From positions 898,892-962,891 of the forward strand of contig KV454014.1 of the NCBI GenBank assembly GCA_001661245.1: 64,000 nucleotides of DNA, written 5' to 3'. This DNA is from Pachysolen tannophilus NRRL Y-2460 (taxonomy: Eukaryota). The position numbers and the translations under genes were made by a program. The notes beneath the pieces were generated by a model. It did not search any database. It was not told the origin of the DNA and saw only the letters and a program-made list of their open reading frames with translations. This document shows, one piece after another, positions 8,097 through 60,688 of the stretch (position 1 is its first letter; each line of letters starts with the position of its first letter).

Positions 8097-8536
8097 NNNN
8101 NNNNNNNNNNNNNNNNNNNNNNNNNNNNNNNNNNNNNNNNNNNNNNNNNNNNNNNNNNNNNNNNNNNNNNNNNNNNNNNNNNNNNNNNNNNNNNNNNNNN
8201 NNNNNNNNNNNNNNNNNNNNNNNNNNNNNNNNNNNNNNNNNNNNNNNNNNNNNNNNNNNNNNNNNNNNNNNNNNNNNNNNNNNNNNNNNNNNNNNNNNNN
8301 NNNNNNNNNNNNNNNNNNNNNNNNNNNNNNNNNNNNNNNNNNNNNNNNNNNNNNNNNNNNNNNNNNNNNNNNNNNNNNNNNNNNNNNNNNNNNNNNNNNN
8401 NNNNNNNNNNNNNNNNNNNNNNNNNNNNNNNNNNNNNNNNNNNNNNNNNNNNNNNNNNNNNNNNNNNNNNNNNNNNNNNNNNNNNNNNNNNNNNNNNNNN
8501 NNNNNNNNNNNNNNNNNNNNNNNNNNNNNNNNNNNN
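8097..8536. other. Assembly gap (N run) flanked by a (TA)n microsatellite
   Basis: Ns seen directly. Confidence 0.99.
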
Positions 8537-8618: not shown

Positions 8619-9743
8619 ATGGGGAACAAATCTAATAGTGTGTCTTTATCATCATTGAATGATGTTAATGAGATTGGAAGTTGTGATTTACTGTTTGATA
8701 AATCTATACTGGTTATAACATCGATATTATCTACTCAAACTCAATCAATTGCACATTTAACTTCTCAGTATAAAAATTCTAAATGGTCTCAACAACAATT
8801 AAAACAATCTTTAGATATAATGAATGAATCATTACGTAAAGGTGGTAAAATTGTTGTATCTGGTATAGGGAAATCTTATAAAATTGCTTCTAAAACAGTT
8901 GCTACAATGAATTCTTTATGTCTTCATGCTTCATTATTACATCCAGCAGAAGCATTACATGGTGATTTAGGAATGGTAAAAGAATATCAAGGAGATTGTA
9001 TGATTTTAATTTCTGCAAGTGGTAAAAGTCCTGAATTGATTCAATTATTAGCTCATGTACCACTTATGGTTCCAATAATTTTATTAACTTGTACAAAAGT
9101 TTCAATATTATCTCAACATCCTCAAGTGAAATCTTTATTATATGCAGAATTTCCTTCAAAATTTCATGAAGAAAATATATATGGATTATCAGCTCCTACT
9201 TTATCTACTACATTATGCTTATCTTTGATGGATAGTGTTTCAATTGCATTACTGGAATTACATGTTTCAGATATCAATATAAGGAAAAGACTTTTTGGAG
9301 AAAGACACCCTGGAGGTGCTATTGGTCAAGCTTATTCATTACCTTCATCATCTCTGCAAAGTTTAAAATCTTGTGCATCAATATCTGATTTAAAATCATT
9401 GGAAACAATTTCTCAAACTTCAGATGAATCTGCACAATCAAAAATAACTCCATCACTGGTAATACCTTCTGATATTGATGAATATACATTAAATTTAATA
9501 GATAATAGTCTTTCAGATTTAATTAAAAATTCAACAAATGTTAAATATTTACAAAAATTACCAAATGATGAATTGGAATTATTAAGATTAATCACTTTAT
9601 ACGATTTTTTAATTATTGATAATCAAAAAGGTATTGATTCTAAATCTATAATAGAAATTATTAGAGTAAGTCATCAACAAGGAGATCTGTGGAATGAAAC
9701 TACTTGGAAAATTCATGAAGCTACGAAAAGAATTATAGTCTAA
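8619..9743 (+). CDS. SIS-domain, KpsF/GutQ/KdsD-like sugar-phosphate isomerase homologue
   Basis: Motifs KIVVSGIGKS, LHPAEALHGDLG, ISASGKSPEL, APTLSTT and HPGGAIG. Confidence 0.85.
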   Translation: MGNKSNSVSLSSLNDVNEIGSCDLLFDKSILVITSILSTQTQSIAHLTSQYKNSKWSQQQLKQSLDIMNESLRKGGKIVVSGIGKSYKIASKTVATMNSLCLHASLLHPAEALHGDLGMVKEYQGDCMILISASGKSPELIQLLAHVPLMVPIILLTCTKVSILSQHPQVKSLLYAEFPSKFHEENIYGLSAPTLSTTLCLSLMDSVSIALLELHVSDINIRKRLFGERHPGGAIGQAYSLPSSSLQSLKSCASISDLKSLETISQTSDESAQSKITPSLVIPSDIDEYTLNLIDNSLSDLIKNSTNVKYLQKLPNDELELLRLITLYDFLIIDNQKGIDSKSIIEIIRVSHQQGDLWNETTWKIHEATKRIIV

Positions 9744-20451: not shown

Positions 20452-22911
20452 ATGTTTGTAGTAGGGTCAAGATTTTCAAAGATTTTTTCAAAGAATTTTT
20501 CAATTCAAAGTAAAAGGTTTTTTAATGATATTAAATTTCCAATTAAAATTTCAAAAGAAGTACAACAAGCATTAAGTGAAAAAAAACCAATTGTTTCATT
20601 AGAAAGTACTATCATTACTCATGGGTTGCCTTATCCAAAGAACTTGTTGATGGCTCAAGATGTGGAGAAGGTTATAAGGGATAATGGATGTGTTCCAGCT
20701 ACTATTGCATTTATAGATGGTATACCATCAATTGGATTAGATAAAAATCAATTTTTAAAATTATCAAATAATGAAAATGAAATTGAAAAATTATATAAAA
20801 TTTCAAGAAGAGATATTCCTTATATAATTAGTGGAAAATTTTCAGGTGGTACAACAATTGCATCTACAATGATTTTATCAAAATTAGCTAAAATTAAAGT
20901 ATTTGCTACAGGTGGTCTTGGTGGAGTCCATAAACATGGTGAAATTACAATGGATATAAGTGCAGATTTAGAAGAATTAAGTAAAACAAGTGTTGCTGTT
21001 GTTTGTAGTGGACCAAAATCTATCTTAGATGTACCAAAGACAATTGAATATTTAGAAACTAAAGGTGTACCAGTTCTGACATATAATCCAACTTTAAAAA
21101 AAAATGATTCAGAAACATTTGTTCCAGGATTTTATTGTCAAAGTTCAGGTGTAAAATCACCTTTTGCATTTGATGATTTCTTAACTCCAGCAAAGATGAT
21201 ATTTAATGGAAGAAATTTAAATTTAGAAAATGGATATTTATTTTGTATTCCACCTCCAGAAAATTTAGCTTTAGATTCTTCTTTCATTAATAAAATTATT
21301 GATGATGCACAATTAGAAGCAGAATCTTTAAATATTCATGGTAAAGCATTGACTCCATTTTTATTAAATAAAATTAATTCTTCCACTGGAGGTGAAAGTG
21401 TTAGGTCTAATGTTGGATTCGTAATCAATAACGCAAAATGTGCTAGTGAAATTGCTAAAAATTTAAACAATTTAGAACTTGAAAAGGTTAGTAATAAAAA
21501 ATTTTTTTAAAGATTCAATTAAAAAAAGATATAAAATTATATATATATACTAACAATAATATCCATATTTTAGCATTCTTATTCAAATATTTTCCAATTT
21601 CAACCTTCAAGTAAAATTTTACAAAAAACAAATATAATCAATAAATTAGAATCAAAGAAGAATCAATTTTTTGAAAAAACAAATGCAGTTATAATAGGAT
21701 CTATAGCATTAGATTCCACTTGCATATTAAATCCAAATCATAAATTATATGATTCTAATCCTGGGAAATCAAAACAAACCGTTGGAGGTGTTGGATTTAA
21801 TGTTACATTAGCATCAAATGTTGTTTCTTTAAATAAAAAAAGTGATCCTAATTTAACCAAGCCAAGATTAATTTCTATTGTTAGTAATGATTCATCAGCT
21901 TCAAAAATTATTGAACATTTAAAGAAAAATAATATTGAATCTAATGGAATTTATATAAGTAAAGAAGAAAATTTTCCTGGATCTGCACAATATACTTCAA
22001 TTCATTCTAGTGATGGAAATTTAATTATAGCATGTGCAGACATGGATATAATTGAATGTTTACCAAGCAAACATGTCATGGCTCAATTAGAACTATTAAA
22101 ACCTAAATGGGTATTAATGGACTCAAATATTTCAATTGAGTTGATGGAACTGATTGTTATTGCTTCCATAGAACTTGATTTTCAAATCATTTATGAACCA
22201 ACTTCAATAATAAAATCTTTTAAAATTTCAAAACTGAAAAATTTAAAGATTTACCCAAATAATCAAATAAAATTAGCAACACCAACTATAAAAGAGTTAG
22301 ACACCATTTATGAAAATTTTGAAAAAATGGGGAAATTTGATGATTTAGATAATTGGTTCCCAATAATTGATTCAATTAAAACTGATGATATGAGATTTCA
22401 AGAAAACTTGAAAAAATTATCAAATAATTTCCCAATCTTAAAAGAGTATATGAAAAATGGTATATTTATAAAAAGTTTTAAACTCTTACCTTACATCAAT
22501 AATCTCATTTTAAAAGATGGAGAAAATGGTATATTACTAATTCAATTACTTAACAACGTAAATAGATTAGATTCACAAAAATTGAAACAATACAATATGG
22601 TTTTTTCAAGAGGAAAAAAATTTACTGAAAATAATATCGAAAAACAATTGGGTGTCTTGATCCAATATATGGAAATACCTAATCTTTTACAAAAAAAAGA
22701 TATCAAAAGTGTTACTGGTGCTGGTGATTCATTAGTTGGATACATACTAAGTAAATTAAACAATAACGAAGAAAACTGGTTATTCAATCTTGAAAAAGAA
22801 ATAGACATAACTACAAGACAAAAGAATTTGGTTAATTGTCAAACTTGCGCTGCTTTAAGCTTGTTAAGTAATGATTCAATTAATGTTGAAATGATAAAAG
22901 ATCTCGAGTAG
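20452..22911 (+). CDS. Bifunctional pseudouridine-5'-phosphate glycosidase (PsuG/IndA) and PfkB-type pseudouridine kinase. Exons 20452-21486 and 21574-22911, about 790 aa
   Basis: PsuG motifs VSLESTIITHGLPYP, ATGGLGGVH and DISADLEEL. Exon 2 is open in the same frame from 21574 with PfkB motifs DSNPG, VGGVGFNV and VTGAGDSLVG. The two parts are joined by an 87-nt intron. Confidence 0.9.
21487..21573 (+). other. Spliceosomal intron (87 nt, phase 0)
   Basis: GTTAGT donor, TACTAAC branch point at 21548-21554, TAG acceptor at 21571-21573. Contains an in-frame TAA at 21508. Confidence 0.9.
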
Positions 22912-27619: not shown

Positions 27620-30600
27620 TTATTCTTCATTTCCGGAGAAACGACTTTGATATTCAACAGCTTTAGCCTTGACATAATCACAAGCTTTCAAGTCCTTTTT
27701 GTTTTCTTCAAATTCTAACCATTTTCTAAAGAAGAATTTAGCTTGTTTCTTTGAAATTTTCTTTAAATTCAAAACTCTTTCAAACAATTCTTCAATTTTC
27801 TTTTTACCATCATTTCCATCTTCTTTATCCAATTTAATTTCCTGATCTATGTAGACATTCCAAATATCAATTCTCTTTGGGACATCTGCAATCAAACCTT
27901 CAAATAATGAGCGACCTTGTTCTGGATCACCTTTGTTAAATTCCAATTGAGCAAATTTACGAACTATTTCAATGTGATCTCTCTTTGGTAATATCTGTAA
28001 TGCACTAGATAATATTTGACGACATTCTTCCTGTTTATGTTGATCAATCAAGAATGAACCATAAGAAAACCAAACCACAGTATGTTTGTTGAATTTTTTT
28101 AACATTTTCTTGAATAACTCATCAGCTTTGTCAAATTTTTCAGATAAAATATATATTCCAGATAATTTTTGATGCATTGTTAAAGAATCCATATACTGAC
28201 ATGATCTCTTAAATAACTCTTCTAAAGTGTCTTCACTTCCAAAAGTATTTTCCAAATTTAATAAAGCAATCCAGATATTCATCTTTTCTTGCTCATCACG
28301 GTAGTTGATCGTCTTTAAAGCACGTTCACCAATCTCCCGAGCTTTATCTACTTCACTTAATTGCAATTGGAAAGACATGTAATTCATCCACAAGATTGAA
28401 GAACTAGGATTACCGAGTAATAATCTTTCAAAATCGGCAACAGATTGAGGAGCTCTTGTATTTAAGTCAACAGTTTTATCCTCAACTATAGTAGACTTAT
28501 TCTTCTTCTTTCTGTCCTTTTTAGATTTCTTATCACTTGTAAAATCTTCCTCTTCATCAGAAGACTCTTCTCCGGCAGCAACCTGGTCCAAAATAGATGC
28601 AGTCCAGTCAAAACCATTAGTTGAAAGACCAGCAGAAACTGTATTCGAAAATGATGTCTCCTCTTCTTCGTCATCAGAACCGGACTCAGATTCTGAATTA
28701 TCATTTTCAAATGCATCCTTCATAACTTGGTCGCCTTCTTCATCTTCATCATCCTTGTCATCTTCTTCGCTTGCTTCATCTTCGTCCTCTTCCTCTTCTT
28801 CCGAATTTTCGGCATCCTGTTCAAACTCTTCAGAAGAAATTTTTCCTTCTTCACCGTCTTCATCATTATCCTTTTCAGAGTCAGTGAAGTACGAGGCTTT
28901 CATACCAAGAGATAATTGCTTCTTTTCTGGATTGATTTTTAGTATTTTAACTTTAACTCTGTCACCTTCACCAAATAATGCTTGAATGTTTTCAATTTTA
29001 TTGTCAGAAATTTCAGAATGATGACATAAACCATCAACATTCGAAGTTCCATCCAATTTAACAAATACACCAAAATCAGTGGCTTTCTTGACATAACCTT
29101 CATAAATCTCTCCTACTTTCAAATCTTCAAATCTTTTCAATGGATTCAGCTCACCACTAACTTCACTGGCCTTCAAACTTAATAAGATACGACCTTCTTC
29201 TTCAGCGCTGATGATTCTACACAGAACAGCCTGATGAGGTTTGAAAAATTTGTTCCAGTCTTTGATGTATGAATCTGATAGATCACTTACTCTCACGTAT
29301 CCATAAATTTCACGGCCTAATGAAACAAATACACCTTTTGAAGTGACATTTTTAATAAAACCACGGACTATGTCTCCACTCTTCAAATCATTAATAGAAG
29401 ATATTGGTCTATCTTTGGCATCTTTTGTACGTAAGGAAACAGCTATTTTGTTGTTTTCATGATCAACTTCTAAAATCGTAGCAACACAAATGTCATTAGT
29501 TGAAAAAATAGATTCTAACTTTTCAGTGTAGTCGTTCAATGCATCAGTAACAAATGAAACAGCAGTCACATCCTTACCAAGCTCAACCAAGACATAATTA
29601 TCCTTAGTTTTCAACACTCTAGATGGGACCACTTGACCAACTTTGACATCTTTTGAAGACAAGATTGGGTTTGGTCTCGATGATAAAGTAACAGCATTAT
29701 GTTCTGTATCAACTTCTTCGACTGTAACTTCAAGAGCCGAACCTAATGGATAATTCTTATCTAAATCCTCAAAGGTAGATGCATCATCAGACAAGCTCAT
29801 TAACGAAATACGTCCTCTAATTGTTGGAGAAATATTAACCCATAAATAACTTCTAGCAAAATTATTAATAAACGCAATCCATTTGGTACCAATTTTTGTA
29901 TCAGATAAAGTTAACGGTTTATATACCTTGCTTTCAACTAAATCTGATTTTTTAGCGGATAACTCCAAAACTAAATTTTTATTGTTCCTATGAGAAATAG
30001 GTAAAAATCTGTGATTACGGGCATCGTGATACCCAATAATTTTAACATTTAAAACTTGGTCCTTTTTGAATTGTGATAACGGATGCTTCTTGTCGGTGAT
30101 TTCTGACAAATTATCAAAAATTTGAGATATATCGATACGCCCTTGTAAATTATCAGCCAATTCAACATTTAACTGGGTAGATTTGACTGATTTAATAATT
30201 GCCTTGGTGAGAACACCTGGAACAAACTCGTCAAGATTCTTAATTCTAGTGTCGACTGGATTGACAGCCATTTCCAGATTTGAATCAACTTTTAGTTCCT
30301 TCATAGACACTAAAAATCTTTTCTTGTCATTGTCCAATCTTATAATTCTAACAGAAACTGATTTGTGTATATACAAATTTTCATCTTTTTCGATATACTT
30401 GGTTAAGGCTAAACCTGTTAACCTATTTGCAAAGCCAACAAAAACTCCTGAATCTGTAATCGATCTAATATATCCAGGAAAAACAGTTTCACTAACTGAT
30501 ATTTCTTTGAAAGAAGATGGTAAAACATTTCCTGATCTGACAAAATCTACTAACGATTTCTTACCAGATAAAGTGATAACTCTAGATTTGGTATCCTTTT

Positions 30601-32908
30601 CCAAAGCCAAAACCTTTGGTAAAATTTTGCCAATTTCTAGTTTTTTTAATAAAGCTCTATTTTGTTCTATATTACCGTCTGACAAATGACCAGCAGAAAT
30701 TACACCACGCAAATTACTATCTGGCAATTCAACAATTACCGAGTTTTTTTCTTTCTCAACTATTACCACATCAACTATAGATTTTCCAGGTATTAATTCT
30801 GTTATAGCATCCTTTTGGGCCAGAGATAATGTGCTTGAAACACGGCACGATACCCTTAATTTCTTATTCTCCTTATCGACATTCAAAATTCTGACATTAA
30901 TAGTTTGTCCTAATCTTAAATGATCTTCAGGATTTTTGACAAACGTTTCACTTATTTCAGACTTTGGTAAAAAAGCTTTTACATTGCCGAAAAATGAAAC
31001 AATGCAACCATTAGGTTGAATCTTTTCAACTGTGGCAGGAGTACGTTTTCCTTCTTCGGCATCTTCCCATGAAGCGATTATATCTTCGTCATCAGCACCA
31101 ACCAATGATTTCTTGAAAGTAACCATGACATTAGTCTTTCCTGCTTTTGGATGAGTTATTTTTAAAACTCTTCCCTTTACTTTGGCACCAATTTTGAATT
31201 TTCTTTCTGGATATATTAATTTTATATCACTCATGTGCAGTTTCGGTACATAAGCATCAAATTTGTCAAAAACTCTCAAAGAAATCCCACTTTCTGGTAT
31301 AACTTTTAAAATTTCGGCTTGACATAATATACCAACAGGAATATCTTCTGATCTTAAATATGTCTGCAGAATTTGTTTTTTATCAAAAGTTAAAATATAA
31401 AAATTATCAACCAAAGAATATCCCAAGACTCTTGCTTTATGTTTTGTTCCAATTTTGTATTCAACGTCAACACTTTCCTTTTCACTGATTCTTGAAACAT
31501 GTGCTTGGCCCAAGACTGATTTATTTCCAACGTTTGCGTATATATAATTTGAATCATGACCATTTATTTCAACTTCGTCAAATACATGACCAATTGCGAA
31601 AGCTTCCAAAGGTGCAGATTCAGTTTTTGGGTCCCAAGCAGTTGGAGTCAATGCCAATATATGAGGCAAAATCGATAAAGTCAATTTTCTTTCTCCATTT
31701 TTTAACTGAGAAGATAGTACTCTCGCTTTAATGTTGGATCCTATAGCAAATTTATGTTTCAAAGCATTGAATTCAAAAGCATGAGCATGTGTAAAATTAA
31801 TGGTTGCGTCACATAAACCAAAGACTTTACAAATTAATCCATTATGTTTTACTTCTGTTATTATTGCTTCAACTAAAGGACCAGCAACAATTGAATCAAC
31901 TGAAGAAATTGTAGTTATTGTGCCTGTTTTTTTGGAAGAACCTGAAGGAATTTTACATGTGATTGTTCTAGAATTAGCGACATTTTTAGCAATTGATGTA
32001 AGTAATACTGAACCAATTTTTAAACTATCCACGTCAACACCTCCACTTATAAGTTCTTTTTTAGATATAAAACCTTTTTTATCATCCATACCAGTATTTA
32101 AAATAGCCCCATGATCTTCTATAGAAGTAATAGAAACTTGTAAAGTTGCATTTAAAACCAAATCATCAATTTCTAAAAATTTATTCACTTGTTCAGGTTC
32201 GATTGTTAATTGGATTCTTTTCTTTATAGTTTTATTAATTTTGCCGCTATTACTATTTGAATCTTCAACAACTAAAGCTCTCAACCATTGACCAATTTTA
32301 AAATAGTTTCTTAAATCTGGAAGCTCAGAAGTGGTGTTCTCCTCCTCTTCCTCCTCCTGCTGTTGATCATCATCACCATCATCGTCAAAAGCATTTTTTT
32401 CTTCTTGTTCTTGTTCTTCTTGAAATTTTTCTAATAAAGAAGTGATTTCTTCACTTATAGCAGTAATGGGGATAAACCCAGTTATATTATCAGTTAATGC
32501 CAAGCAGATTTCCATCTTATTTATCTGTGAGATTTGCCCCAATATCGTTGTTCCTGGTGTCAATGTTTTCAAATTGAAATTTTCAACTTCAATTGATTTC
32601 TTTTCTCCCAAAGTGGGAACACCACTAGTAGACAAAGATGATTTCTTCTTGGCCCTTTTAGCAACCAGCAATTTCTTCTTCTTTGCCAGAGGCGGCCCCT
32701 CTGCATCTTTTGAAACATCAGTTTTCGTCTCAAATAAAATATCTCTAGCAGCTTCATTAGCAACTTCCTTAATCTCTAATGGTGTTAATACCGATGCACC
32801 ACCTCTTGGAAATGCAATCTCACTACTACTAATAATTGATTGTGGCCGAGCACCAGCTGACACATCCCCCGAGGAATCGTCAGTTATCTTTCTCTTCTGA
32901 GGAGTCAT
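27620..32908 (-). CDS. RRP5: rRNA biogenesis protein Rrp5 (S1 repeats and HAT/TPR C-terminus)
   Basis: Motifs FPRGGASVLTPLE, multiple S1 domains, APQSVADFERLL and WMNYMSFQLQLSE. ATG at 32908. Confidence 0.97.
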   Translation of the reverse strand: MTPQKRKITDDSSGDVSAGARPQSIISSSEIAFPRGGASVLTPLEIKEVANEAARDILFETKTDVSKDAEGPPLAKKKKLLVAKRAKKKSSLSTSGVPTLGEKKSIEVENFNLKTLTPGTTILGQISQINKMEICLALTDNITGFIPITAISEEITSLLEKFQEEQEQEEKNAFDDDGDDDQQQEEEEEENTTSELPDLRNYFKIGQWLRALVVEDSNSNSGKINKTIKKRIQLTIEPEQVNKFLEIDDLVLNATLQVSITSIEDHGAILNTGMDDKKGFISKKELISGGVDVDSLKIGSVLLTSIAKNVANSRTITCKIPSGSSKKTGTITTISSVDSIVAGPLVEAIITEVKHNGLICKVFGLCDATINFTHAHAFEFNALKHKFAIGSNIKARVLSSQLKNGERKLTLSILPHILALTPTAWDPKTESAPLEAFAIGHVFDEVEINGHDSNYIYANVGNKSVLGQAHVSRISEKESVDVEYKIGTKHKARVLGYSLVDNFYILTFDKKQILQTYLRSEDIPVGILCQAEILKVIPESGISLRVFDKFDAYVPKLHMSDIKLIYPERKFKIGAKVKGRVLKITHPKAGKTNVMVTFKKSLVGADDEDIIASWEDAEEGKRTPATVEKIQPNGCIVSFFGNVKAFLPKSEISETFVKNPEDHLRLGQTINVRILNVDKENKKLRVSCRVSSTLSLAQKDAITELIPGKSIVDVVIVEKEKNSVIVELPDSNLRGVISAGHLSDGNIEQNRALLKKLEIGKILPKVLALEKDTKSRVITLSGKKSLVDFVRSGNVLPSSFKEISVSETVFPGYIRSITDSGVFVGFANRLTGLALTKYIEKDENLYIHKSVSVRIIRLDNDKKRFLVSMKELKVDSNLEMAVNPVDTRIKNLDEFVPGVLTKAIIKSVKSTQLNVELADNLQGRIDISQIFDNLSEITDKKHPLSQFKKDQVLNVKIIGYHDARNHRFLPISHRNNKNLVLELSAKKSDLVESKVYKPLTLSDTKIGTKWIAFINNFARSYLWVNISPTIRGRISLMSLSDDASTFEDLDKNYPLGSALEVTVEEVDTEHNAVTLSSRPNPILSSKDVKVGQVVPSRVLKTKDNYVLVELGKDVTAVSFVTDALNDYTEKLESIFSTNDICVATILEVDHENNKIAVSLRTKDAKDRPISSINDLKSGDIVRGFIKNVTSKGVFVSLGREIYGYVRVSDLSDSYIKDWNKFFKPHQAVLCRIISAEEEGRILLSLKASEVSGELNPLKRFEDLKVGEIYEGYVKKATDFGVFVKLDGTSNVDGLCHHSEISDNKIENIQALFGEGDRVKVKILKINPEKKQLSLGMKASYFTDSEKDNDEDGEEGKISSEEFEQDAENSEEEEEDEDEASEEDDKDDEDEEGDQVMKDAFENDNSESESGSDDEEEETSFSNTVSAGLSTNGFDWTASILDQVAAGEESSDEEEDFTSDKKSKKDRKKKNKSTIVEDKTVDLNTRAPQSVADFERLLLGNPSSSILWMNYMSFQLQLSEVDKAREIGERALKTINYRDEQEKMNIWIALLNLENTFGSEDTLEELFKRSCQYMDSLTMHQKLSGIYILSEKFDKADELFKKMLKKFNKHTVVWFSYGSFLIDQHKQEECRQILSSALQILPKRDHIEIVRKFAQLEFNKGDPEQGRSLFEGLIADVPKRIDIWNVYIDQEIKLDKEDGNDGKKKIEELFERVLNLKKISKKQAKFFFRKWLEFEENKKDLKACDYVKAKAVEYQSRFSGNEE

Positions 32909-37162: not shown

Positions 37163-37446
37163 GGATTTAAATATATATATATATATATATTTATAATTTT
37201 AAGATTTTGGAAATTTCTTTTAGCAGTTGAGAGAATTAACAATTTGAGTATTGCTCTCATGTAGCAGAACGATAACAATGTTAATTTTTTTTTTTCTTTT
37301 GACAAAATTGAAACCGATAATCCAAATGTTCACTACACCTGTAAACTATAAAAAGTATAGTAATCAATATTCAAATGTAATAATAATAATAAAAATATAT
37401 AAGTAATATCAAATGGGCAAAAAAAAAACCAAAAAAAAAAAAAAAA

Positions 37447-37789
37447 NNNNNNNNNNNNNNNNNNNNNNNNNNNNNNNNNNNNNNNNNNNNNNNNNNNNNN
37501 NNNNNNNNNNNNNNNNNNNNNNNNNNNNNNNNNNNNNNNNNNNNNNNNNNNNNNNNNNNNNNNNNNNNNNNNNNNNNNNNNNNNNNNNNNNNNNNNNNNN
37601 NNNNNNNNNNNNNNNNNNNNNNNNNNNNNNNNNNNNNNNNNNNNNNNNNNNNNNNNNNNNNNNNNNNNNNNNNNNNNNNNNNNNNNNNNNNNNNNNNNNN
37701 NNNNNNNNNNNNNNNNNNNNNNNNNNNNNNNNNNNNNNNNNNNNNNNNNNNNNNNNNNNNNNNNNNNNNNNNNNNNNNNNNNNNNNNNN
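37447..37789. other. Assembly gap (N run) flanked by poly(A)
   Basis: Ns seen directly. Confidence 0.99.
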
Positions 37790-38000
37790 AAAAAAAAAAA
37801 AAAAAACAAATGAAGTCTAAACATGAAGAGTTTAGAAACAAGTGATAACATTGTAAAGCAAAATAACAAATAACTGGAATCAAAGCAACTAAAAAAAAAT
37901 CTTTAATGTTTATCTTTTTTATATATACGTATATATAAATGTTTTATTTTATTATGTACTTTTTTGGTTTTTTTTTTTCTTCTTTTCATCTTGTGTTAGA

Positions 38001-39122
38001 TTAAAAATTATCCCATTTTTCATCATTATCATCGTTAGATTTTTTACCACTGTTACCACCAGCTAAACCTTGTAATTTGCTCCTTTGTTGTGGTCTCGAC
38101 ATACCAAATGCAGGGGTAACTCTATCCGTATTGTTTTCTTGGCTCACTCCATCAAATAATTTGCCATACTTACTTTCACCTGATGCTCCAGCTGAAGATG
38201 GATTATCTAAATAATGATTAGTGGTTTCTTGTACTTTCAGTCCAAATTGCATCATTGCTCTTCTAGCTTCTATAGCTAAATCTTTATCACTCAAGTTTTG
38301 TAAATTTGGTCTTATTAATTGCTCATTAACTTCTTGTAAAGATTTTGAAACTGTTGAAGAAAACAATCCCCAACCTTTTGTTAATGTTCCAAAAGGATCT
38401 GTTTGAAGAGCATCAACAGTAAATCCAGATAAAGAACTACCTTGATTTTGTTGTGATCTCTGAGGAGTATTACCAAAACCTGTATATTTACCTCCTTGAG
38501 ATGGAGGTAAATCTTCTGGACGTTCATCATTTTTAGCACCCAATGAAGCAAAGAAATTTTCATTCTTCAGTTTTTGACTAGAAGGAATTTGTGAATTATT
38601 AACATTTCTTGAACTTATTGATGAATTTAATGATGCAGAACTACCATCGATACTGTTACTATTGTTATTAATAGTATTATTGTTACTTTTTAAATCAGAA
38701 TCAGTTGGTAAGGATTCATTCAGATGATCTTTTGCAATAAATTGTCTGCCTTCAACGATACAAGTTAAATATTCCTTGTAATCTTCAGCAACATAATTAG
38801 TATATTTAATTTTTGGATTTAATTTTAAATCTAACCCATGGTCAGTAAAAAAAACAGCACAATTTTCATTCCCACCTTTTTCCATACGCAGAATCTCATC
38901 ATTTTTAAATTGATCCATAGTAATTGATCTAACAAATGAAACATGTACACCTAAACTTCTATGAATACCAGCACACTCAAGACAAATAAATATACCAAAC
39001 TTAGGTGATGCCCATTGCGGATTAGGTGATCCACAATCAAAACATTTTCTGTTTGGTCCCGTCTTCTGCAACGCTAATAATTTTTTCTTTTGATTAGGAT
39101 CAACCGACCACTCTGTTGACAT
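38001..39122 (-). CDS. GCS1: ADP-ribosylation factor GTPase-activating protein
   Basis: ArfGAP zinc finger [43 protein letters not shown]-like [11 protein letters not shown], and C-terminal KWDNF. Confidence 0.96.
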
Positions 39123-39598: not shown

Positions 39599-40495
39599 TT
39601 ATAACTTTGGGTTATTTTCCAATAGTTTTTGCTTCAATTGAACTGGGTAGACGTTTGAGTTTGTAACCTGTACATTGCTTGTCTGCCACAGTCCTCCATC
39701 GACTACAACAACAGTTCCAGTAATATAACTAGCCAGCTCACTAAATAAGAATACTGTAGCTAAAGCAACATCTTGAACTCTTCCTAGACGTTGTAATGGG
39801 ATTTTAGTGGTTAATTCCTGAGGCGAAGCTCTTGCAAGTCTTGTAAAACCTTCTGTTGCAGCTATTGTACCGGGAGCAATTGCATTAACTCTAATTCCTA
39901 AAGGGCCGAGTTCTACTGCCAATGATTTTGAAAGTGCATCAACTCCAGCTTTTGCAGCACTTACATGAATTTGGAATGGGACACCATAATAATGTAATGT
40001 TGAACTTACCATAATTATAGAACCTTTATTTTTTTTCAATTCTTGGAAACAACTCTTAACGGTATTAAAAGAACCTAATAAATCAATTGAAACTACTGAT
40101 TTAAATGCATTTGATGATAGGTGATTAAAATCAGCAATAAAATTCCCAGCAGCTCCACAAATTACAAAATCAATCTTACCCAATTCTTTAACAGTTTTAT
40201 TCACTGCTGCTTCAAGACTTTCAATATTTCTAACATCAGTGTTTGGACATGCTACAATTTTAGAATCTTTCCTAATTTTTGAAATCTCTAAAGCTGCTCG
40301 AACTGTCTTTTCTGGGTTTCTACCAACAATTGAAGCATTACAACCTAAAATTACTAAATATTCAGCTTGTTTCTTACATATAGTTCCAGATCCTCCTGTA
40401 ATAAAAACTACTTTCCCTTTAAAAATATCCTCCTTGAAAGGTATTTTATCTTTAATATTAAACATATCAAAATTCATATCTTTACAATTACTCAT
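39599..40495 (-). CDS. SPS19: Peroxisomal 2,4-dienoyl-CoA reductase (SDR)
   Basis: Motifs GKVVFITGGSGTIC, GAAGNF, HVSAAKAGVDAL and IPLQRLG. C-terminal PKL is PTS1-like. Confidence 0.92.
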   Translation of the reverse strand: MSNCKDMNFDMFNIKDKIPFKEDIFKGKVVFITGGSGTICKKQAEYLVILGCNASIVGRNPEKTVRAALEISKIRKDSKIVACPNTDVRNIESLEAAVNKTVKELGKIDFVICGAAGNFIADFNHLSSNAFKSVVSIDLLGSFNTVKSCFQELKKNKGSIIMVSSTLHYYGVPFQIHVSAAKAGVDALSKSLAVELGPLGIRVNAIAPGTIAATEGFTRLARASPQELTTKIPLQRLGRVQDVALATVFLFSELASYITGTVVVVDGGLWQTSNVQVTNSNVYPVQLKQKLLENNPKL

Positions 40496-40749
40496 TAAAT
40501 TAATATAGAACTTGTACCAAACTTTCTATTAACTTTACAAAAATGGTATTGATATACCGTCATGTTTAAATTTGCTCTAAATAATTATACCTGAAGGTGA
40601 TTATCGGAGGTGAAAAGACAATAAGGTTTCCCCGCAAAAAAAAAAAAAAAAAAATAAAAAAAAAAATATGAAAAATAAATAAATATAAAACGAACGAATG
40701 AACGACCAAATGAATGAACAAAAGTAAAGAAGAAGAAGAAGAAGATGTA

Positions 40750-43167
40750 TCAGTTTTTCTTAAATAATTTCTTCACATGTTTGACACCGACATTCCATCT
40801 TTTCTTTTTCAATCTGATTCCGTTATCTTCATCACTATCGCTTCCATAATCTTTTAAAGATATTTCTCTTTTCAAATTGTTGCTAGATGTATAATCTTTC
40901 TTTTTCGTTTCACCATCACCATCATCTTGATCTATTTGATCATCTTGATCTTGATCTTGGTCTATTTGATCTTCTTGTTCAATTTCTTCCTCTAATTTAC
41001 CTAGGTTTAGCTTGTCATTGATGTAATTCATGATTAACTTGTAGTTTCTTCTTCTATCACCATCTTCGTTAACATCGTTATAATCCAATATGTTCAATAT
41101 ACAACTTGTTGAGAGATTGTTTTTACTCAAATTGAATTCACCAAGATATTCCAAAATATCATTCAGGATTATAAACCTTGTATAAAAATCATCATCTAAT
41201 TTGATTATTAATTTTAAGCATCTAATTGCAGATAATCTCAGTTGTTTTTTGAAAAAGGGAGAAGTCAATATCTTCAATCCTTTTAATATATTATTTTCCA
41301 AGAAAAAACTTCTTGATAGAAAAATTTCATGTTTTTCTGAACAAAATGCAATCAATTCACATAAATGTTGTAATAATATGCAATCATTAATTGATTCAAT
41401 ATCAACTATTTCATTAATTTCTTTTTTTATTTGTTCAGGTGATTTCTCAATTTCAATATTCAATTTTGATAATCCTATTAATGGTGAAAATAATTTGCAA
41501 GCCAGCTTATCATAAAAAGATTTGAAATAATTACCAAAATCTAAGATTCTATTACTGGTGCTTTCACTACTATCATTAGCACCATTTTCATGTCCAAAAT
41601 TACCAAGAAGTGCCATATGCCCATCACTACTCATCACGGCATTTGACGATAACGGATCCAATAACACTTTTAATGCCTCGTAAACCTGTGTCTTCAAACC
41701 AATGTCTTTTTCTTCTATTAGTAAATTTGTTAAAATTAATATTAATGTCATATCAGTTGATAAAAGTCTATCTTCATTTTGAATTTCATTATCAACTGTA
41801 GATCCATCTTCATCAACGCGTCCTTTACTATTATTGTTCATGTTCGCTATTGCATTACTATAAACACCATTTACTAGCATTACATCGTGTTCTATAATCG
41901 ACACTATGAGTTCTGTGCCTAATACTCTAATGTTTATTAGATCATCTTTAAGAGCAAAATTAATCATTTTGAATAATCCTTTTCTAACTAATTTGATGAA
42001 AAAATCTGATCTTTGATTATTTTGTAATGTTTTAGCAATTAATGCAAATTGATGTAACATTTTAACCCCATCTCTTCTTTTTTCTAAAATATTTTCATTA
42101 TTATCATTTTTATCATCGTATAATTCAAATAATGATTCCATAAATTTATTATTTTCTTCTTGAAGATATTTTATAACTTCAACTTGATTAAAATATATTG
42201 AAGCCTGAATAAAACTAAATATTGAATCATCCAATAATTTTGCCAATACAACATCTTTTAAAAATTGTAAATTAAAACTTTGTTTTATCTTATTTATTAT
42301 ATCCTTATTATCCACTGGTAATACTTCTTTAAATTTAGATTCATCTTTTAAATACAGTCTATGATTTGATTTAAAAGTTGGAAATTCAGGATCATATTCC
42401 AATATTCCAACAACCCCCATTATATTACTATCATCCAACAATATTTCAATAATTTGAGTATTATTATACAATATTAAAATTTTAATAATTTCACATAAAT
42501 AATGTAAATTTTTCAATTTTTTAGTCTTTTCACACTTGTTAAAACATTCGATTAATTTTATAATATAATCACTTTCAATTAAAAATTGTGAAATCATATC
42601 TTTACTATAATTTGAATTAGCTGCATTATTTAATATTTCCAAGATCTCGTGTAAATTTTTCAAAGTTGGTAAAGGAGGAATATCAACAGGTCCAACTATT
42701 AATTCAGTAATATCACCACCTCCTTGACCATTTCCAGATCCTACCCCAGAGTTACCACAACCTTGAGGCTGTCCGTTTTCATCGATGGCTCCTCCATTTT
42801 GAGACGCGCCATTATTGATAACCGCAACCAACGATATATTTGGTTGATAATTTTGTTGAACTTCGATTAAGAAATCACATAGAGAAGAACACCCTTCTGG
42901 TTCTTGAAATGAAAGCGCTATATCTTTCCCCTTCGAATCTGTCCATACAATAAGCGTCTCCTGTTGTTGTTGATATTGTATCGAACCTTCTATAAACAGT
43001 TTCAATATTATATCAGATTGATCATTTTCGTTTCTAACTATGAAATATGGTAAATTTTTCTTCACATCAATCTCCCCAGTACAATACCCAGTCCCATTAT
43101 CGATCCAGTTCTCTCCATCTAATAGATACACCTTGACTCGCCTTGGCGTGATTTCTTGCAATTCCAT
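40750..43167 (-). CDS. PSY2: Protein phosphatase 4 regulatory subunit 3 (Psy2/SMEK)
   Basis: EVH1 RRVKVY...W.D.GTGYC and QQQETLIVW. SMK-1 domain VGILEYDPEFP and FLKDVVLA. ATG at 43167. Confidence 0.94.
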   Translation of the reverse strand: MELQEITPRRVKVYLLDGENWIDNGTGYCTGEIDVKKNLPYFIVRNENDQSDIILKLFIEGSIQYQQQQETLIVWTDSKGKDIALSFQEPEGCSSLCDFLIEVQQNYQPNISLVAVINNGASQNGGAIDENGQPQGCGNSGVGSGNGQGGGDITELIVGPVDIPPLPTLKNLHEILEILNNAANSNYSKDMISQFLIESDYIIKLIECFNKCEKTKKLKNLHYLCEIIKILILYNNTQIIEILLDDSNIMGVVGILEYDPEFPTFKSNHRLYLKDESKFKEVLPVDNKDIINKIKQSFNLQFLKDVVLAKLLDDSIFSFIQASIYFNQVEVIKYLQEENNKFMESLFELYDDKNDNNENILEKRRDGVKMLHQFALIAKTLQNNQRSDFFIKLVRKGLFKMINFALKDDLINIRVLGTELIVSIIEHDVMLVNGVYSNAIANMNNNSKGRVDEDGSTVDNEIQNEDRLLSTDMTLILILTNLLIEEKDIGLKTQVYEALKVLLDPLSSNAVMSSDGHMALLGNFGHENGANDSSESTSNRILDFGNYFKSFYDKLACKLFSPLIGLSKLNIEIEKSPEQIKKEINEIVDIESINDCILLQHLCELIAFCSEKHEIFLSRSFFLENNILKGLKILTSPFFKKQLRLSAIRCLKLIIKLDDDFYTRFIILNDILEYLGEFNLSKNNLSTSCILNILDYNDVNEDGDRRRNYKLIMNYINDKLNLGKLEEEIEQEDQIDQDQDQDDQIDQDDGDGETKKKDYTSSNNLKREISLKDYGSDSDEDNGIRLKKKRWNVGVKHVKKLFKKN

Positions 43168-43717
43168 CTTCGAAACCAATAAACCAAATTGAAAAATTCA
43201 ATATATATAAAATTAAAAAAAAAAATCAATAACAAAAAAAAAAATGATAACTCCACGAAATAAAATAAAATATAATAATAATACAAAGTCAACGAGAAGA
43301 ATCTTATTTGATCTAGAAATAGAAATAAACCAATTCTAATATACCTAAAACTCCATTTAAACTGATAAGATATATATAATCAAAACTTGTTTTTTTATTT
43401 ATTTAAAAACAAAAAAAAATTCTCTCTTTTCCTTTTTTTACATTTATTTTTCGCAAAGTAACTCGGAAAAATACATATAAACAAAACACCAAATTACATA
43501 GGATTGATTGATATCTTAAATTTATTAAAAGATAAAGAGTTGGGAACTTTTTTATGATGTAGAGACATAGTAATATAAAGGTCTTTAAATAAATCTTTCA
43601 GAATTTATTAGGAATTTATATATAAAAGTTACAAAATTAGATTGATTTTATATGTAATGTAATGTATGTAAATATGTTAAAAATGGGAAGAGTTGTAGAA
43701 AACTATATATGAGTTTT

Positions 43718-44452
43718 TTATATATTTAACCTGACGACTTGGTCGACACCTGGGTAGTTTGGAATATCGATATCCCATTTCTGTGCCATTTCTTTAGATA
43801 TAAACCTACCACCTAAATAATGATAATTGCCTTTAAAAAATTTAGATCCTGGTTTCGGTGCAGTTAAACTAACTAAACTTGAAGGATTTAAGATATATTT
43901 TGCATCTACCAAATCTGCAATATTTGGACCTTTGTCTACATCCCACCCAGTAGGACAATCAACACATGTGATTGGTTTTGAAGTTTCCACTTGTTTTAAA
44001 TGCTCAATGATGGTATCAAATGGGGATCTCAAAGGTGGATGGAATGAAAAACCAAAGATAGCATCAATAATCTGATCATTCTCATTAATCAAACTTTTCA
44101 ACTCAGAATTGGATAATTCATTTTGCAAAACATCTATCTTAAAAGTTTTCAATTGAGTAAGTAAATTATTAAATAATACATTACTCGATTTGTGCTTTGG
44201 ATAATACACCGTAGGAGTATAACCAAAAAGTTTCAAATGTCTACTTGCCACTAAACCATCACCACCATTATTTCCAGGACCACATATAACCAAGACCTTA
44301 TTATGTGTTGAAGGTGGATACGTCTTATAAACCAGTTGTGCTACCGATAACCCAGCAAGTTCCATCAATTGATCAATTGAAAAACCAACAGTAGACATCA
44401 ATTCTTTATCCACTGCAGCTGCTACCGTTGATGATAAAACTTTAAATGACAT
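43718..44452 (-). CDS. NNR1: NAD(P)H-hydrate epimerase (YjeF_N)
   Basis: Motifs QLMELAGLSVA, CGPGNNGGDGLVASRHL, DAIFGFSF, VDCPTGWDV, LVSLTAPK and HYLGGRF. Confidence 0.95.
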   Translation of the reverse strand: MSFKVLSSTVAAAVDKELMSTVGFSIDQLMELAGLSVAQLVYKTYPPSTHNKVLVICGPGNNGGDGLVASRHLKLFGYTPTVYYPKHKSSNVLFNNLLTQLKTFKIDVLQNELSNSELKSLINENDQIIDAIFGFSFHPPLRSPFDTIIEHLKQVETSKPITCVDCPTGWDVDKGPNIADLVDAKYILNPSSLVSLTAPKPGSKFFKGNYHYLGGRFISKEMAQKWDIDIPNYPGVDQVVRLNI

Positions 44453-44900
44453 TCTTTTTTTTTTTTGCCCACCAAATTTAACTTTCCAAAATCACTTTTC
44501 ACTTCTTTTCTACAATATAACTTATTAATACCTTAACAACTCTAGAAATATCCATTTTATATATGAACTAGATTAAAGCAATCATCTATCACACCATGGT
44601 TTTCACAACCGGGGAAAAAAAAGAAAAAAGAAAAATTATAATACTGCGTTAAGGTGCATAATATTTTACTAATTTATAAAATTATTTTGTGATTTATGAT
44701 TAAATAATCTGGGAGCCAGTTTTCCTTATATTCTATTTAACAAGAAACTTTACAAAACATATAAAGAGCAAATAAGAAAAGAGAACAGAAACGCTATCTA
44801 TTGATTGTTTCCATAAAAGAAAAGGAAAGAAAAGAAAAGAAAGAAAAAAAAAAAAAAAAAAAAAAATTAAGTGACAGAATAATACATATATTATATTCAA

Positions 44901-46538
44901 TTATCTTTTACTAACAATTGAGTGTAAATCTGTCAAAGTTTCTTCCTTTTTGATATTACTGGTACTTTCATCTCCATCTGATTTTTCTAATTTCCCAATT
45001 TCACTGCTTACTCTTAATCTCAGTTTGTATTCTCTTTCTCTTTGTTTCAACAATGCAGCTTTTTTCTCCAATTCAGCTGCTTTCTTTGCTAATTCAGCAG
45101 CAGAGTTCAGTTCAAGATTTTCCAATTTTTTCTTTCTTTCCAATATCTTGTTATGTTTTAAAGCATATGGAACTGTTTCTGAAAGTTTTCTCAATTGTTG
45201 TTGATATGAAGAATCTTGAGATGAAGGTGAAGATATAAAACTTGCACTGGAACTATTAACTCTCGGTGTGGAAGTAGCTGAAGAATGTACTGATTTTGTT
45301 ACACCTTCTTTACCATTAGAAGAAGAAGCTATAGTTTCCTTATCATTATCAGTTGTTTCATTTTCACCTTCATAATTTTTTGATTTAAAAGTTCTTGTTG
45401 TCCGAACTGTTGATGTAGATGATTTAAAAGATGAAGCATCATTAAAAGTTGAATTTGGATTAGTAACACCAGCAATTTCAGCTAAGTTAGATAAAGAAGG
45501 AGGTTCTCTAGAAGAACGATTATCACCATTAGAATTATCCAATTGAGGACTAAAACCTGTTACTAATGATAATTTCTCGGTTCTATAACTTTCATAAAGG
45601 AAATCATGGGTTAAATCTTTTAATTCTTGTAAATGAGAACCTAATATCACATTTTTCAAATAAACAAAATCACTTACTGTAGTATCATTTATATTTATCA
45701 TTCCCCATGGATATTTTCTAGCTCTTACTAATTCACCATTAATTTCATATTTTTCTTCACTTGTTATTATGGCAAAAGGTACTAATGTAGATAAAAATTT
45801 TACTTCTTCAATAGTTTCTAAATCATCTTCATCTTCATCATAACTAAATTGAAAAATTGGAATATTAAATTTATCAATATCAAACATGATATTTTTTTTA
45901 AAATTTGCCAATTCAATTGAAGTAAATGAATCTGCTCTTCCAATAACTGGTATGATATTACAATATTTAGATAATTTTTTCATAGTTAATACATCCAATT
46001 CTCTTAATCCATGACCAGTTGGTGTAATAAAATATAATAATACATGAACTCTTGTATCTTCAAACCTTGGATTTCTTCTAACTCTTGTTTCTTCAGCTAA
46101 TACACTATCATATTGTTGTTCCAAATATGACATAATCTCAGCAAAGCAAATATCATTATCTAAATTGTCACCAAATCCAGGTGTATCAATAATACTTAAT
46201 AACAATTTCGAGTCATCATCATCAATAAATTCAACTTTAGATTCTGTTATTGCAATACCTGGTTCATTATTAACCAATTGTGGTTGAAAACTTCTTTCAA
46301 AATTGGCTGCATCTGTTATATTACCATTAATATTCGTAAAAGTTAATGTTTTTGGTAAAGAAGAAAGTTGTTCATGAAAAGGCAGAAACTTATGTGGTAA
46401 TATATTTTTATCCAATAAAGAATTGACAAAAGTTGTCTTACCAGTACCAGATTCACCACATATCATTATAGTGAATTTAATTCCTCTTTTACTATCTCTT
46501 CTACGTCTTAACGTAGAAGATGAATTATAACTTGTCAT
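44901..46538 (-). CDS. SHS1: Septin Shs1/Sep7
   Basis: P-loop GESGTGKTT, DTPGFGD, EETRVRRNPRFEDTRVH, and a C-terminal coiled coil after SETVPY. ATG at 46538, with an MCB ACGCGT upstream at 46689-46694. Confidence 0.9.
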   Translation of the reverse strand: MTSYNSSSTLRRRRDSKRGIKFTIMICGESGTGKTTFVNSLLDKNILPHKFLPFHEQLSSLPKTLTFTNINGNITDAANFERSFQPQLVNNEPGIAITESKVEFIDDDDSKLLLSIIDTPGFGDNLDNDICFAEIMSYLEQQYDSVLAEETRVRRNPRFEDTRVHVLLYFITPTGHGLRELDVLTMKKLSKYCNIIPVIGRADSFTSIELANFKKNIMFDIDKFNIPIFQFSYDEDEDDLETIEEVKFLSTLVPFAIITSEEKYEINGELVRARKYPWGMININDTTVSDFVYLKNVILGSHLQELKDLTHDFLYESYRTEKLSLVTGFSPQLDNSNGDNRSSREPPSLSNLAEIAGVTNPNSTFNDASSFKSSTSTVRTTRTFKSKNYEGENETTDNDKETIASSSNGKEGVTKSVHSSATSTPRVNSSSASFISSPSSQDSSYQQQLRKLSETVPYALKHNKILERKKKLENLELNSAAELAKKAAELEKKAALLKQREREYKLRLRVSSEIGKLEKSDGDESTSNIKKEETLTDLHSIVSKR

Positions 46539-47096: not shown

Positions 47097-47825
47097 TCAA
47101 GTTTGATTATCAATAACATCATTTGCTTGTCTAGTGACCAATACTTTATCAGCTAAACCTAAATCAACAGCTTCTTGAGCATTTAAGAAACGATCTCTTT
47201 CTAATAATTCACTAATTTTATCTGAATTTAATCCTTCTTTCATATGTTTCATATAAATTGAACAAATTTTTTTCTTTGTATTTAAAATATGATTTGCATG
47301 AATTTCAATATCACTTGCTTGACCTTTAAATCCACCACTTGGTTGATGTATCATTATCATTGAATTTGGTAAAATCAATCTTTTCCCCCTCTTACCACTA
47401 CAAAGTAATAAAGAAGCCATTGAACATGCTTGTCCCAAACATACAGTAGAAACTGGAGATTTAATATATTGTATAGTATCATAAATTGCTAAACCTGAAG
47501 ATATCGAACCACCTGGAGAATTTATATATAAATGGATTGGTTTTGAAGAAGATTGACTTTCTAAATAAAGCAATTGTGCTGTTATTACAGTAGCTAATGC
47601 ATCTTCTATAGGTCCAGCTAAATAGATGATTCTTTCAGCTAATAATTTAGAAAAAATATCTGTAAATGATTCTGGTGATGGTGCTGAGTTTAATACCGGC
47701 ATTGCATGCAGTAAAGGGTTAAAAGTATTCAATCTTGGTGAAAATTTTAAGCTTCTAGTACTACCTAAAGCTATTGAAACTGGCTTAAATAATTTTTTTT
47801 GTCTAAAAATAGATCCTAACATCAT
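47097..47825 (-). CDS. CLPP: Mitochondrial ATP-dependent Clp protease proteolytic subunit ClpP
   Basis: Motifs DIFSKLLAERII and YINSPGGS, catalytic Ser (GQACSMASLL), His (MIHQPSGG) and Asp (ERDRF). Basic Ser-rich presequence-like N-terminus. Confidence 0.95.
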   Translation of the reverse strand: MMLGSIFRQKKLFKPVSIALGSTRSLKFSPRLNTFNPLLHAMPVLNSAPSPESFTDIFSKLLAERIIYLAGPIEDALATVITAQLLYLESQSSSKPIHLYINSPGGSISSGLAIYDTIQYIKSPVSTVCLGQACSMASLLLCSGKRGKRLILPNSMIMIHQPSGGFKGQASDIEIHANHILNTKKKICSIYMKHMKEGLNSDKISELLERDRFLNAQEAVDLGLADKVLVTRQANDVIDNQT

Positions 47826-48520: not shown

Positions 48521-48730
48521 ATAAAAGGTAATAGCAGTAGTCAATCAATCCAATCATTTAAAAAAAAAAAAAACAATAGAAAAAGCTTATACATGAGTAA
48601 TTCTCAGCATGAACATTACAGGTCGTGTACATATTCCACATATTTAAAGAACCAGAACGCAAAAAATTTCCATGACTACGTAAAAACCAGTAAAAAAAAA
48701 TAATAAAAAAAAAAAAAAAAAAAAATAAAA

Positions 48731-48806
48731 ANNNNNNNNNNNNNNNNNNNNNNNNNNNNNNNNNNNNNNNNNNNNNNNNNNNNNNNNNNNNNNNNNNNNN
48801 NNNNNN
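48731..48806. other. Assembly gap (76 N) interrupting SEC31
   Basis: Ns seen directly. Confidence 0.99.
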
Positions 48807-49363
48807 GTAGTACCAGCAGATGCAAAAACGTGACTAACGCTATTATTCCATGAAAGACAAGTTATATCTTCCATTGGAGTCATTGCCTTCCCAGGAGCAA
48901 TTGGATGGTCTATCTTATTAGTATCCCATATGAAGATTTCACCTTTGGCACCAGCAGTGGCAAGAACATGATCTTCAGTAGGACTAAATTGAACAGCTTT
49001 TACTGGACCAGAATGATTTTTCCCAATATAAATACTAGCAGCGTCAAGCGAAGAACCATCTATTAATTTCTTGGCATCCCAGAATTGAACAATACTATTT
49101 TCTAAAGCTCCAACAAGCATACCATTGGTATGATCCGCATATTTCTTACTCCATGCTAAAGCATGAAATTTTGTATCCAAAGCAGCAGAAACTATTGGTT
49201 CCTTTGTCAATTTGGAACTCAATATATCCCAAATCTCCAATTTCGACGAAGCCGAAAAATCCAAATCAACAGCGCCTGCCGCAGAACCAGTAGCCAACAA
49301 CGGTAGCGAATCATGAGACCATACAAACGTTGCTGTACGTTCAACTTCACTAAGTTTCACCAT
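48807..49363 (-). CDS. SEC31: COPII coat protein Sec31, 5' fragment (WD40 start) running into a gap
   Basis: MVKLSEVERTATFVWSHD.LPLLATG..AGAVDLDFS followed by WD repeats. About 185 codons are visible. Confidence 0.93.
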
Positions 49364-57131: not shown

Positions 57132-57205
57132 GGTCCCTTGGCCCAGTTGGTTAAGGCGCCGTGCTAATAACGCGGAGATCAGCAGTTCGATCCTGCTAGG
57201 GACCA
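57132..57205 (+). tRNA. tRNA-Ile (anticodon AAT), intronless
   Basis: GGTCCCT/AGGGACC acceptor stem, D-arm TGGCCCAGTTGGTTAAGGC, anticodon arm CCGTG-CTAATAA-CGCGG, T-loop GTTCGATC, and downstream T-runs. Confidence 0.97.
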
Positions 57206-59794: not shown

Positions 59795-60136
59795 GCGAAT
59801 AAAAGTTTATATAGATAGATAAATATAAACCAGAAACTAATAACCAAATCCTATTTCCTCCACAAAAAGTTGTTAAAATCACAAACATATTTTTGTATAT
59901 TTCTGTTCTTTTTGAGCCGCATTCAAAATATGTAAGTAAAATGCACAGAAACAGGCAGATGTAAAGTTTTAACTTGATGATATAAATTCATTTAGTTTTT
60001 ACTCTTATATATATATCTTTTTTTTTTTTATTTCCCATAAATTCATTTCAGACGAGTTTAATCAACTAAATTTGTCTAATATCTTGCTATTAACGAGGAC
60101 TTAACCAAGAAGTCTTTCATTGCTCCGTGGGTAATT

Positions 60137-60191
<55 letters not shown>

Positions 60192-60620
60192 NNNNNNNNN
60201 NNNNNNNNNNNNNNNNNNNNNNNNNNNNNNNNNNNNNNNNNNNNNNNNNNNNNNNNNNNNNNNNNNNNNNNNNNNNNNNNNNNNNNNNNNNNNNNNNNNN
60301 NNNNNNNNNNNNNNNNNNNNNNNNNNNNNNNNNNNNNNNNNNNNNNNNNNNNNNNNNNNNNNNNNNNNNNNNNNNNNNNNNNNNNNNNNNNNNNNNNNNN
60401 NNNNNNNNNNNNNNNNNNNNNNNNNNNNNNNNNNNNNNNNNNNNNNNNNNNNNNNNNNNNNNNNNNNNNNNNNNNNNNNNNNNNNNNNNNNNNNNNNNNN
60501 NNNNNNNNNNNNNNNNNNNNNNNNNNNNNNNNNNNNNNNNNNNNNNNNNNNNNNNNNNNNNNNNNNNNNNNNNNNNNNNNNNNNNNNNNNNNNNNNNNNN
60601 NNNNNNNNNNNNNNNNNNNN
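60192..60620. other. Assembly gap (N run) flanked by poly(T)
   Basis: Ns seen directly. Confidence 0.99.
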
Positions 60621-60688
60621 TTTGTTTTTTTTNTTGTTGCATTATTTTCTTCTTAAGAGAATTTTATTCCTATGCTTGATATCATCAT

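Follow-up and report, generated by a model that had tools for sequence, protein, structure and literature searches.

This report concerns the meaning of the codon CTG (CUG in the messenger) in a 64-kb window, the term used here for the whole stretch of 64,000 nucleotides given above (contig KV454014.1, positions 898,892 to 962,891). The window is AT-rich, with a GC content of 25 to 33% in 4-kb steps, and contains 30 ATG-to-stop open reading frames (ORFs) of at least 150 amino acids, with no obvious introns. Their Pfam content (Brn1, Yme1, Pri2, Rrp5, Gcs1, Sps19, Psy2, Nnr1, a septin, Pus7 and others) fits a budding yeast. In-frame CTG codons occur 105 times and are found at least once in 27 of the 30 ORFs. 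A first-pass annotation, made from the letters alone, had proposed that CUG encodes alanine here (NCBI translation table 26), citing seven CTG codons as examples and two more, both in Psy2, as counter-examples. The gene identities given there agree with Pfam, through the families YjeF_N (Nnr1), SDR (Sps19), septin, ArfGAP, Indigoidine_A (PsuG), SIS and PP4R3 (Psy2). The features on which the analysis draws are listed below.

8619..9743, plus strand: ORF with a SIS domain; six CTG codons, one of them at 9252-9254 (residue 212)
20452..21510, plus strand: pseudouridine-5'-phosphate glycosidase (PsuG) ORF, CTG at 21076-21078 (residue 209)
27620..32908, minus strand: Rrp5 ORF of 1762 amino acids with eight CTG codons, used in the column statistics and for the tree
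38001..39122, minus strand: Gcs1-like ArfGAP ORF; four CTG codons, among them 38568-38570 (residue 185) and 38889-38891 (residue 78)
39599..40495, minus strand: Sps19-like peroxisomal 2,4-dienoyl-CoA reductase ORF, CTG at 39734-39736 (residue 254) and 39689-39691 (residue 269)
40750..43167, minus strand: Psy2 (PP4R3) ORF, CTG at 42997-42999, 42355-42357, 41503-41505, 41239-41241 and 41164-41166
43718..44452, minus strand: Nnr1 (NAD(P)H-hydrate epimerase, YjeF_N) ORF, CTG at 44333-44335 (residue 40) in a conserved Ala column
44901..46538, minus strand: Shs1-like septin ORF, CTG at 46383-46385 (residue 52), 45108-45110 (residue 477) and 45021-45023 (residue 506)
57132..57205, plus strand: tRNA-Ile(AAT), the sole tRNA gene in the window and not a CUG decoder

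The nine CTG codons that had been cited (44333-44335, 39734-39736, 39689-39691, 45108-45110, 38568-38570, 21076-21078, 9252-9254, 41239-41241 and 42997-42999) are all real, in frame and in the peptide context given for them. No tRNA with a CAG anticodon is present among the tRNA genes of the window, where tRNA-Ile(AAT) stands alone, and the earlier remark that the decoder lies outside it is correct.

The usage of CTG is unusual. In the window ORFs it accounts for 35.5% of the CTN box, a share that drops to 29.0% when two polyglutamine-rich (polyQ) ORFs are left out, while in seven other four-codon boxes the share of the G-ending codon is 2.3 to 10.3%. CTG is used 3 to 10 times as much as other G-ending codons, and its usage is decoupled from that of the rest of its box. 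At an average of 3.5 per ORF, and with the codon present in 90% of the ORFs, the density of CTG resembles that published for Pachysolen, where 16,824 CUG codons were reported in 5288 genes (3.2 per gene) and 80% of genes were affected (PMC4937558).

Whether CTG behaves as leucine was scored in two ways. In the first, 12 domain-bearing ORFs were translated with tables 1 (standard), 26 (Ala) and 12 (Ser) and their whole-protein Pfam bit scores were compared, in effect a Codetta-type likelihood. Over approximately 24 CTG codons in 12 Pfam families, a count that rests, like that of the control, on an approximate envelope for the S1 repeats of Rrp5, alanine gained 10.9 bits and serine 10.8 bits relative to leucine; when RRM_1 was added the gains were 12.6 and 13.1 bits, respectively. 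The control codon CTT, with approximately 34 codons in the identical families, went the opposite way, losing 29.7 bits when read as alanine and 36.9 bits when read as serine.

In the second, alignments of Psy2 (119 homologues), Rrp5 (119), Sps19 (119) and Nnr1 (150 representatives) provided 15 alignable CTG columns, which were scored with residue-substitution frequencies learned from those four alignments; Rrp5 residue 81, mostly gaps, was dropped. With all homologues, leucine fell 13.7 bits below the best residue over the 15 columns, and across all versions of the test the deficit ranged from 11.6 to 15.2 bits. As a control of the method, 11 columns were enough to identify any other codon correctly in at least 97.5% of 200 subsamples (80% for AGT). 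Columns with at least 50% leucine are found for 2 of the 15 CTG codons, versus 196 of 285 for the other leucine codons (binomial P = 1.4e-5). Both scoring schemes, which are independent of each other and have a control each, thus reject leucine, and from the Pfam scores, the column likelihood and the codon usage together it follows that CTG is not an ordinary leucine codon in this window, beyond what chance would produce.

Which amino acid takes its place is indicated by evidence from outside the window. In an exact look-up of the public protein collection, the table 26 translations of Psy2 and Nnr1 were present in NCBI, UniRef and nr (two of the three genes looked up), the contig concerned being 1,446,495 bp long, whereas for Psy2, Nnr1 and Sps19 neither the table 1 nor the table 12 translations were found (none of three in either case). 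The public Psy2 (P0001) carries alanine at all five CTG positions. The public Rrp5 (P0122) and Sps19 (P0242) are each listed as 100% identical to the table 26 translation, and P0242 has alanine at both CTG positions and a different annotated start. Since these public proteins carry alanine at CTG, the annotators of the genome had already applied CUG as alanine. As for that start, P0242 (292 amino acids) uses the second in-frame ATG and so lacks the first six codons of the longest ORF. The best matches after self are 55 to 69% identical, and one protein of the genome is also present in an older protein collection; with the public annotation under table 26, this fits Pachysolen tannophilus, the type of a small genus. 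Five sequencing-run entries from two studies contain the stretch, one of them perhaps its source, and no RNA data set is among them.

A maximum likelihood tree of Rrp5 (30 rows, 1681 columns, LG+G4, quick search), a single-gene tree with no Ascoideales or CUG-Ser2 row, pairs the window with the protein P0123 (66% identity) with a Shimodaira-Hasegawa-like approximate likelihood ratio test (SH-aLRT) support of 100. Some of its group labels were taken from PMC5951914 and PMC11182611, and that of Ogataea arabinofermentans was looked up. The pair is sister (support 98) to eight Pichiales rows (Kuraishia, Ogataea, Brettanomyces, Pichia and Martiniozyma) together with P0125, and falls outside a single CUG-Ser1 group that reaches to Babjeviella. 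As described by Krassowski et al., the Ala clade, with Pachysolen, Nakazawaea and Peterozyma, is a deep sister of the Leu2 clade (PMC5951914), and Groenewald et al. use CUG-Ala to diagnose the order Alaninales (PMC11182611). Judged by the Rrp5 sequences, the lineage of the window occupies this published CUG-Ala position, sister to Pichiales. The first-pass annotation had held that the code would be new only if the organism lay outside the known clade, and it lies within it.

The nearest relative of the window Psy2, a protein from an assembly of public reads (P0002), has leucine at alignment positions 84 and 498, two columns in which the other sequences, counting that of the window, have alanine in 118 of 118 and 117 of 118 cases. 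Among the other sequences of this 120-sequence Psy2 alignment, none has leucine at any of the three columns that are at least 90% alanine. Eight Psy2 sequences have leucine at serine-conserved columns, a positive control for CUG-Ser yeasts translated with the standard code. In Rrp5, the relative P0123 shows no leucine at any of the eight columns with at least 90% alanine, so that this signature of leucine at invariant alanine sites rests on two columns of one protein. The leucines of P0002 suggest that the sister lineage, too, reads CUG as alanine. P0002 is probably the protein of a CUG-Ala yeast predicted with the standard code, and hence with false leucines.

Taken together, the window very probably comes from the nuclear genome of a budding yeast that decodes CUG as alanine and belongs to the order Alaninales, the CUG-Ala clade with Pachysolen, Nakazawaea and Peterozyma; the most likely species is Pachysolen tannophilus. 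The reading with the best support is table 26 in a yeast of this known clade, and it is already known rather than new. The mechanism would be the one put forward in the Pachysolen literature (PMC4937558). According to that account, a tRNA-Ala gene gained the anticodon CAG, and the resulting tRNA(CAG) kept its alanine identity (G3:U70, A73 and a short variable loop). Because these features are retained, alanyl-tRNA synthetase charges it and alanine is inserted at CUG. In the liquid chromatography-tandem mass spectrometry (LC-MS/MS) data of that report, 907 CUG positions were fully supported; 97.2% of them had alanine, 8 were ambiguous and 18 were not alanine (PMC4937558).

The individual CTG sites are less uniform than the overall result. 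Two of them fall in conserved alanine columns, Nnr1 residue 40 and Sps19 residue 254. At the first, alanine is present in 114 and serine in 12 of the 150 representatives, and all four aligned PDB homologues have alanine, in line with the motif SVAQAV that had been given for Nnr1. At the second, 116 of the 119 yeast-type orthologues have alanine and two have serine; the alanine that had been expected here therefore holds for the yeasts, whereas the five aligned PDB chains have leucine (human DECR2), glutamate, tyrosine, tyrosine and alanine. For Sps19 residue 269, DECR2 does have the expected alanine, while among the orthologues alanine is only a plurality (alanine 42, serine 29 and leucine 16 of 119). 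PsuG residue 209, another proposed example, is alanine in Arabidopsis and isoleucine in E. coli, and the Pfam scores there are equal for alanine and leucine and lower for serine. The example taken from the SIS protein is mixed, as residue 212 is aligned to serine, a gap and leucine in three PDB chains, the leucine being that of E. coli KdsD. Residue 78 of Gcs1 lies in a variable column (lysine, leucine or arginine, and glutamate in PDB chains) where the alignment is inconsistent between two paralogues, and residue 185 falls outside the ArfGAP domain. Shs1 residues 477 and 506 fall past the end of the solved chain. Residue 52 of Shs1 and residue 93 of Brn1, also a CTG codon, are both aligned to glutamine in the S. 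cerevisiae proteins and do not inform on alanine versus serine. The conclusion of the first-pass annotation was right, supported as it is by the public proteins, the clade position and the rejection of leucine in two controlled schemes, but its hand-picked motifs overstated the clarity of the evidence in the window.

Several results weigh against alanine when the window is taken by itself. The five CTG columns of Psy2 are, in order, serine-majority, glutamate/aspartate, valine-majority, leucine-majority and variable polar; valine is present in 92 of 119 homologues at residue 555. Two CTG codons lie in strongly conserved leucine columns, namely Psy2 residue 643 (leucine in 97 of 119) and Rrp5 residue 1254 (104 of 119), the other CTG columns of Rrp5 being variable. 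The Psy2 counter-examples that had been listed are thus genuine, the second being residue 57, where serine is found in 75, alanine in 24 and leucine in 12 of 119 homologues; alanine is present there in four of the six nearest relatives. With all homologues, the ranking over 15 columns is serine 0, alanine -0.6 and threonine -2.7 bits, and over the first 12 columns serine 0, threonine -0.3, asparagine -2.2 and alanine -2.8 bits. The Pfam sums tie alanine and serine, with six families favouring alanine, five favouring serine and one equal. When only the nearest relatives are kept, alanine leads serine by 5.4 bits (three relatives), 2.0 bits (six) and 0.4 bits (12), and serine leads by 0.2 bits at 25 relatives, so the lead varies with the number of relatives kept. 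Alanine-majority columns are found for 2 of the 15 CTG codons versus 63 of 136 GCN codons (P = 0.008), which makes the CTG columns atypical for alanine. The tabulation of CTG columns that had been recommended as a check, carried out here on the 15 columns of four families, therefore shows that the residue is not leucine and leaves alanine and serine unseparated: one 64-kb window rejects leucine for CTG and cannot alone distinguish between these two.

The scatter of the CTG columns is the pattern described in print for a codon that had disappeared before it was captured anew. According to the Pachysolen report, CUG positions shared with standard-code yeasts are at poorly conserved sites, and the reassignment is seen mainly at conserved alanine positions (PMC4937558).

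A serine meaning of CUG (table 12), known from the CUG-Ser1 yeasts of the Serinales and the CUG-Ser2 yeasts of the Ascoideales, would account for the small all-homologue lead of serine, its tie with alanine in the Pfam sums and the serine majority at Psy2 residue 57. This is nevertheless very unlikely. The public collection contains two of the table 26 translations and none of the table 12 translations of the three genes looked up, the lineage is placed outside the CUG-Ser1 group, and serine is rare at Sps19 residue 254 and Nnr1 residue 40. The three nearest relatives favour alanine, and serine-majority columns are found for only 1 of the 15 CTG codons versus 86 of 234 true serine codons (P = 0.01). 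As for CUG-Ser2, the sole such sequence among the matches, the Psy2 of Saccharomycopsis, is 39% identical, versus 45 to 55% for the nearest matches.

A mixed or context-dependent decoding, mostly alanine with a minority of leucine and comparable to the serine plus leucine of Ascoidea asiatica, would explain why CTG occurs on conserved leucine columns (2 of 15 columns are at least 80% leucine) and why no one amino acid suits the CTG columns; dual decoding is on record for another yeast (PMC6041473). The Pachysolen proteomics leave little room for it, and a pure alanine code also predicts some new CTG codons at leucine sites, because CTG is one step from TTG or CTA in the code table. We consider such decoding highly improbable. 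The standard code, with the alanine-like columns arising by chance, can draw on the leucines at Psy2 residue 643 and Rrp5 residue 1254 and on those of DECR2 and KdsD, but is next to untenable given the leucine deficit in both scoring schemes (with the CTT control opposite by 30 bits), the few leucine-majority columns, the excess of CTG over other G-ending codons and the absence of table 1 translations of the three genes from the public collection.

Compared with known systems, the window with CUG as alanine is closest to the code of Pachysolen tannophilus and the Alaninales: CTG is not leucine-like, the lineage is sister to Pichiales and the Leu2 clade, the CTG codons are spread over columns of low conservation, with a few on conserved alanine columns, and their density is similar. 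No tested feature of the window differs from this system. In the CUG-Ser1 yeasts (Candida, Debaryomyces; table 12), CUG was likewise moved off leucine by an anticodon-mutated tRNA, and CTG columns, like those of the window, hold polar or small residues and not hydrophobic ones. However, the amino acid is serine, the window lineage lies outside that group and the table 12 translations are not the public proteins. The CUG-Ser2 yeasts and those with stochastic serine-leucine decoding (Ascoidea, Saccharomycopsis) are also AT-rich budding yeasts with CUG off leucine, but the nearest named relatives of the window are Pichiales and Serinales, not Ascoideales, and nothing pointing to serine identity was seen.

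Some further observations were made on the gene content. The adjacency of Sps19 and Psy2 (39599-43167) is also seen, as read from consecutive locus tags, in Debaryomyces fabryi (AC631_03418/03419), Ogataea philodendri (OGAPHI_002473/002474) and Metschnikowia sp. JCM 33374 (g2174/g2175), which indicates that this local gene order is conserved across Pichiomycetes. Based on Pfam, a ClpP-type protease ORF (47097-47825, minus strand) is present besides the pseudouridine-5'-phosphate glycosidase ORF (20452-21510, plus strand). Saccharomyces cerevisiae is not known to have either a ClpP-type protease or a pseudouridine-5'-phosphate glycosidase.

The two polyQ-rich ORFs, a bZIP protein (17664-19448, minus strand) and an RRM protein (50670-52868, plus strand), have 18 CTG codons each, 36 together. 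Most of these are located inside CAG runs, with five consecutive CTG codons flanked by CAG repeats at 52329-52343; CTG is the reverse complement of CAG. Table 26 turns these tracts into Q/A-rich rather than Q/L-rich low-complexity sequence. The Pus7-like ORF has five CTG codons within its first 42 codons (57549-57647), upstream of the TruD domain. Read with leucine, this N-terminal stretch resembles an amphipathic helix; read with alanine, it is an Ala-rich acidic stretch. Runs of N are present at 8097-8536, 37447-37789, 48732-48806 and 60192-60620 (440, 343, 75 and 429 bases), together with two single Ns. Three of these runs fall inside the ORFs at 37333-37851, 48644-49363 and 60076-60642, which are therefore partly unreadable.

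Reassignments of nuclear sense codons are very rare; budding yeasts account for three, among them CUG to alanine. Its description in 2016 was reportedly accompanied by a companion report in PNAS. That description provided tRNA and proteomic evidence (PMC4937558), and CUG-Ala was extended to a clade in 2018 (PMC5951914). The window adds nothing new to this known code and is a correct rediscovery of it. In practice, genes from this DNA need to be translated with table 26, and where the standard code was used to predict the proteins of related yeasts, these would bear false leucines at CUG, as P0002 probably does.

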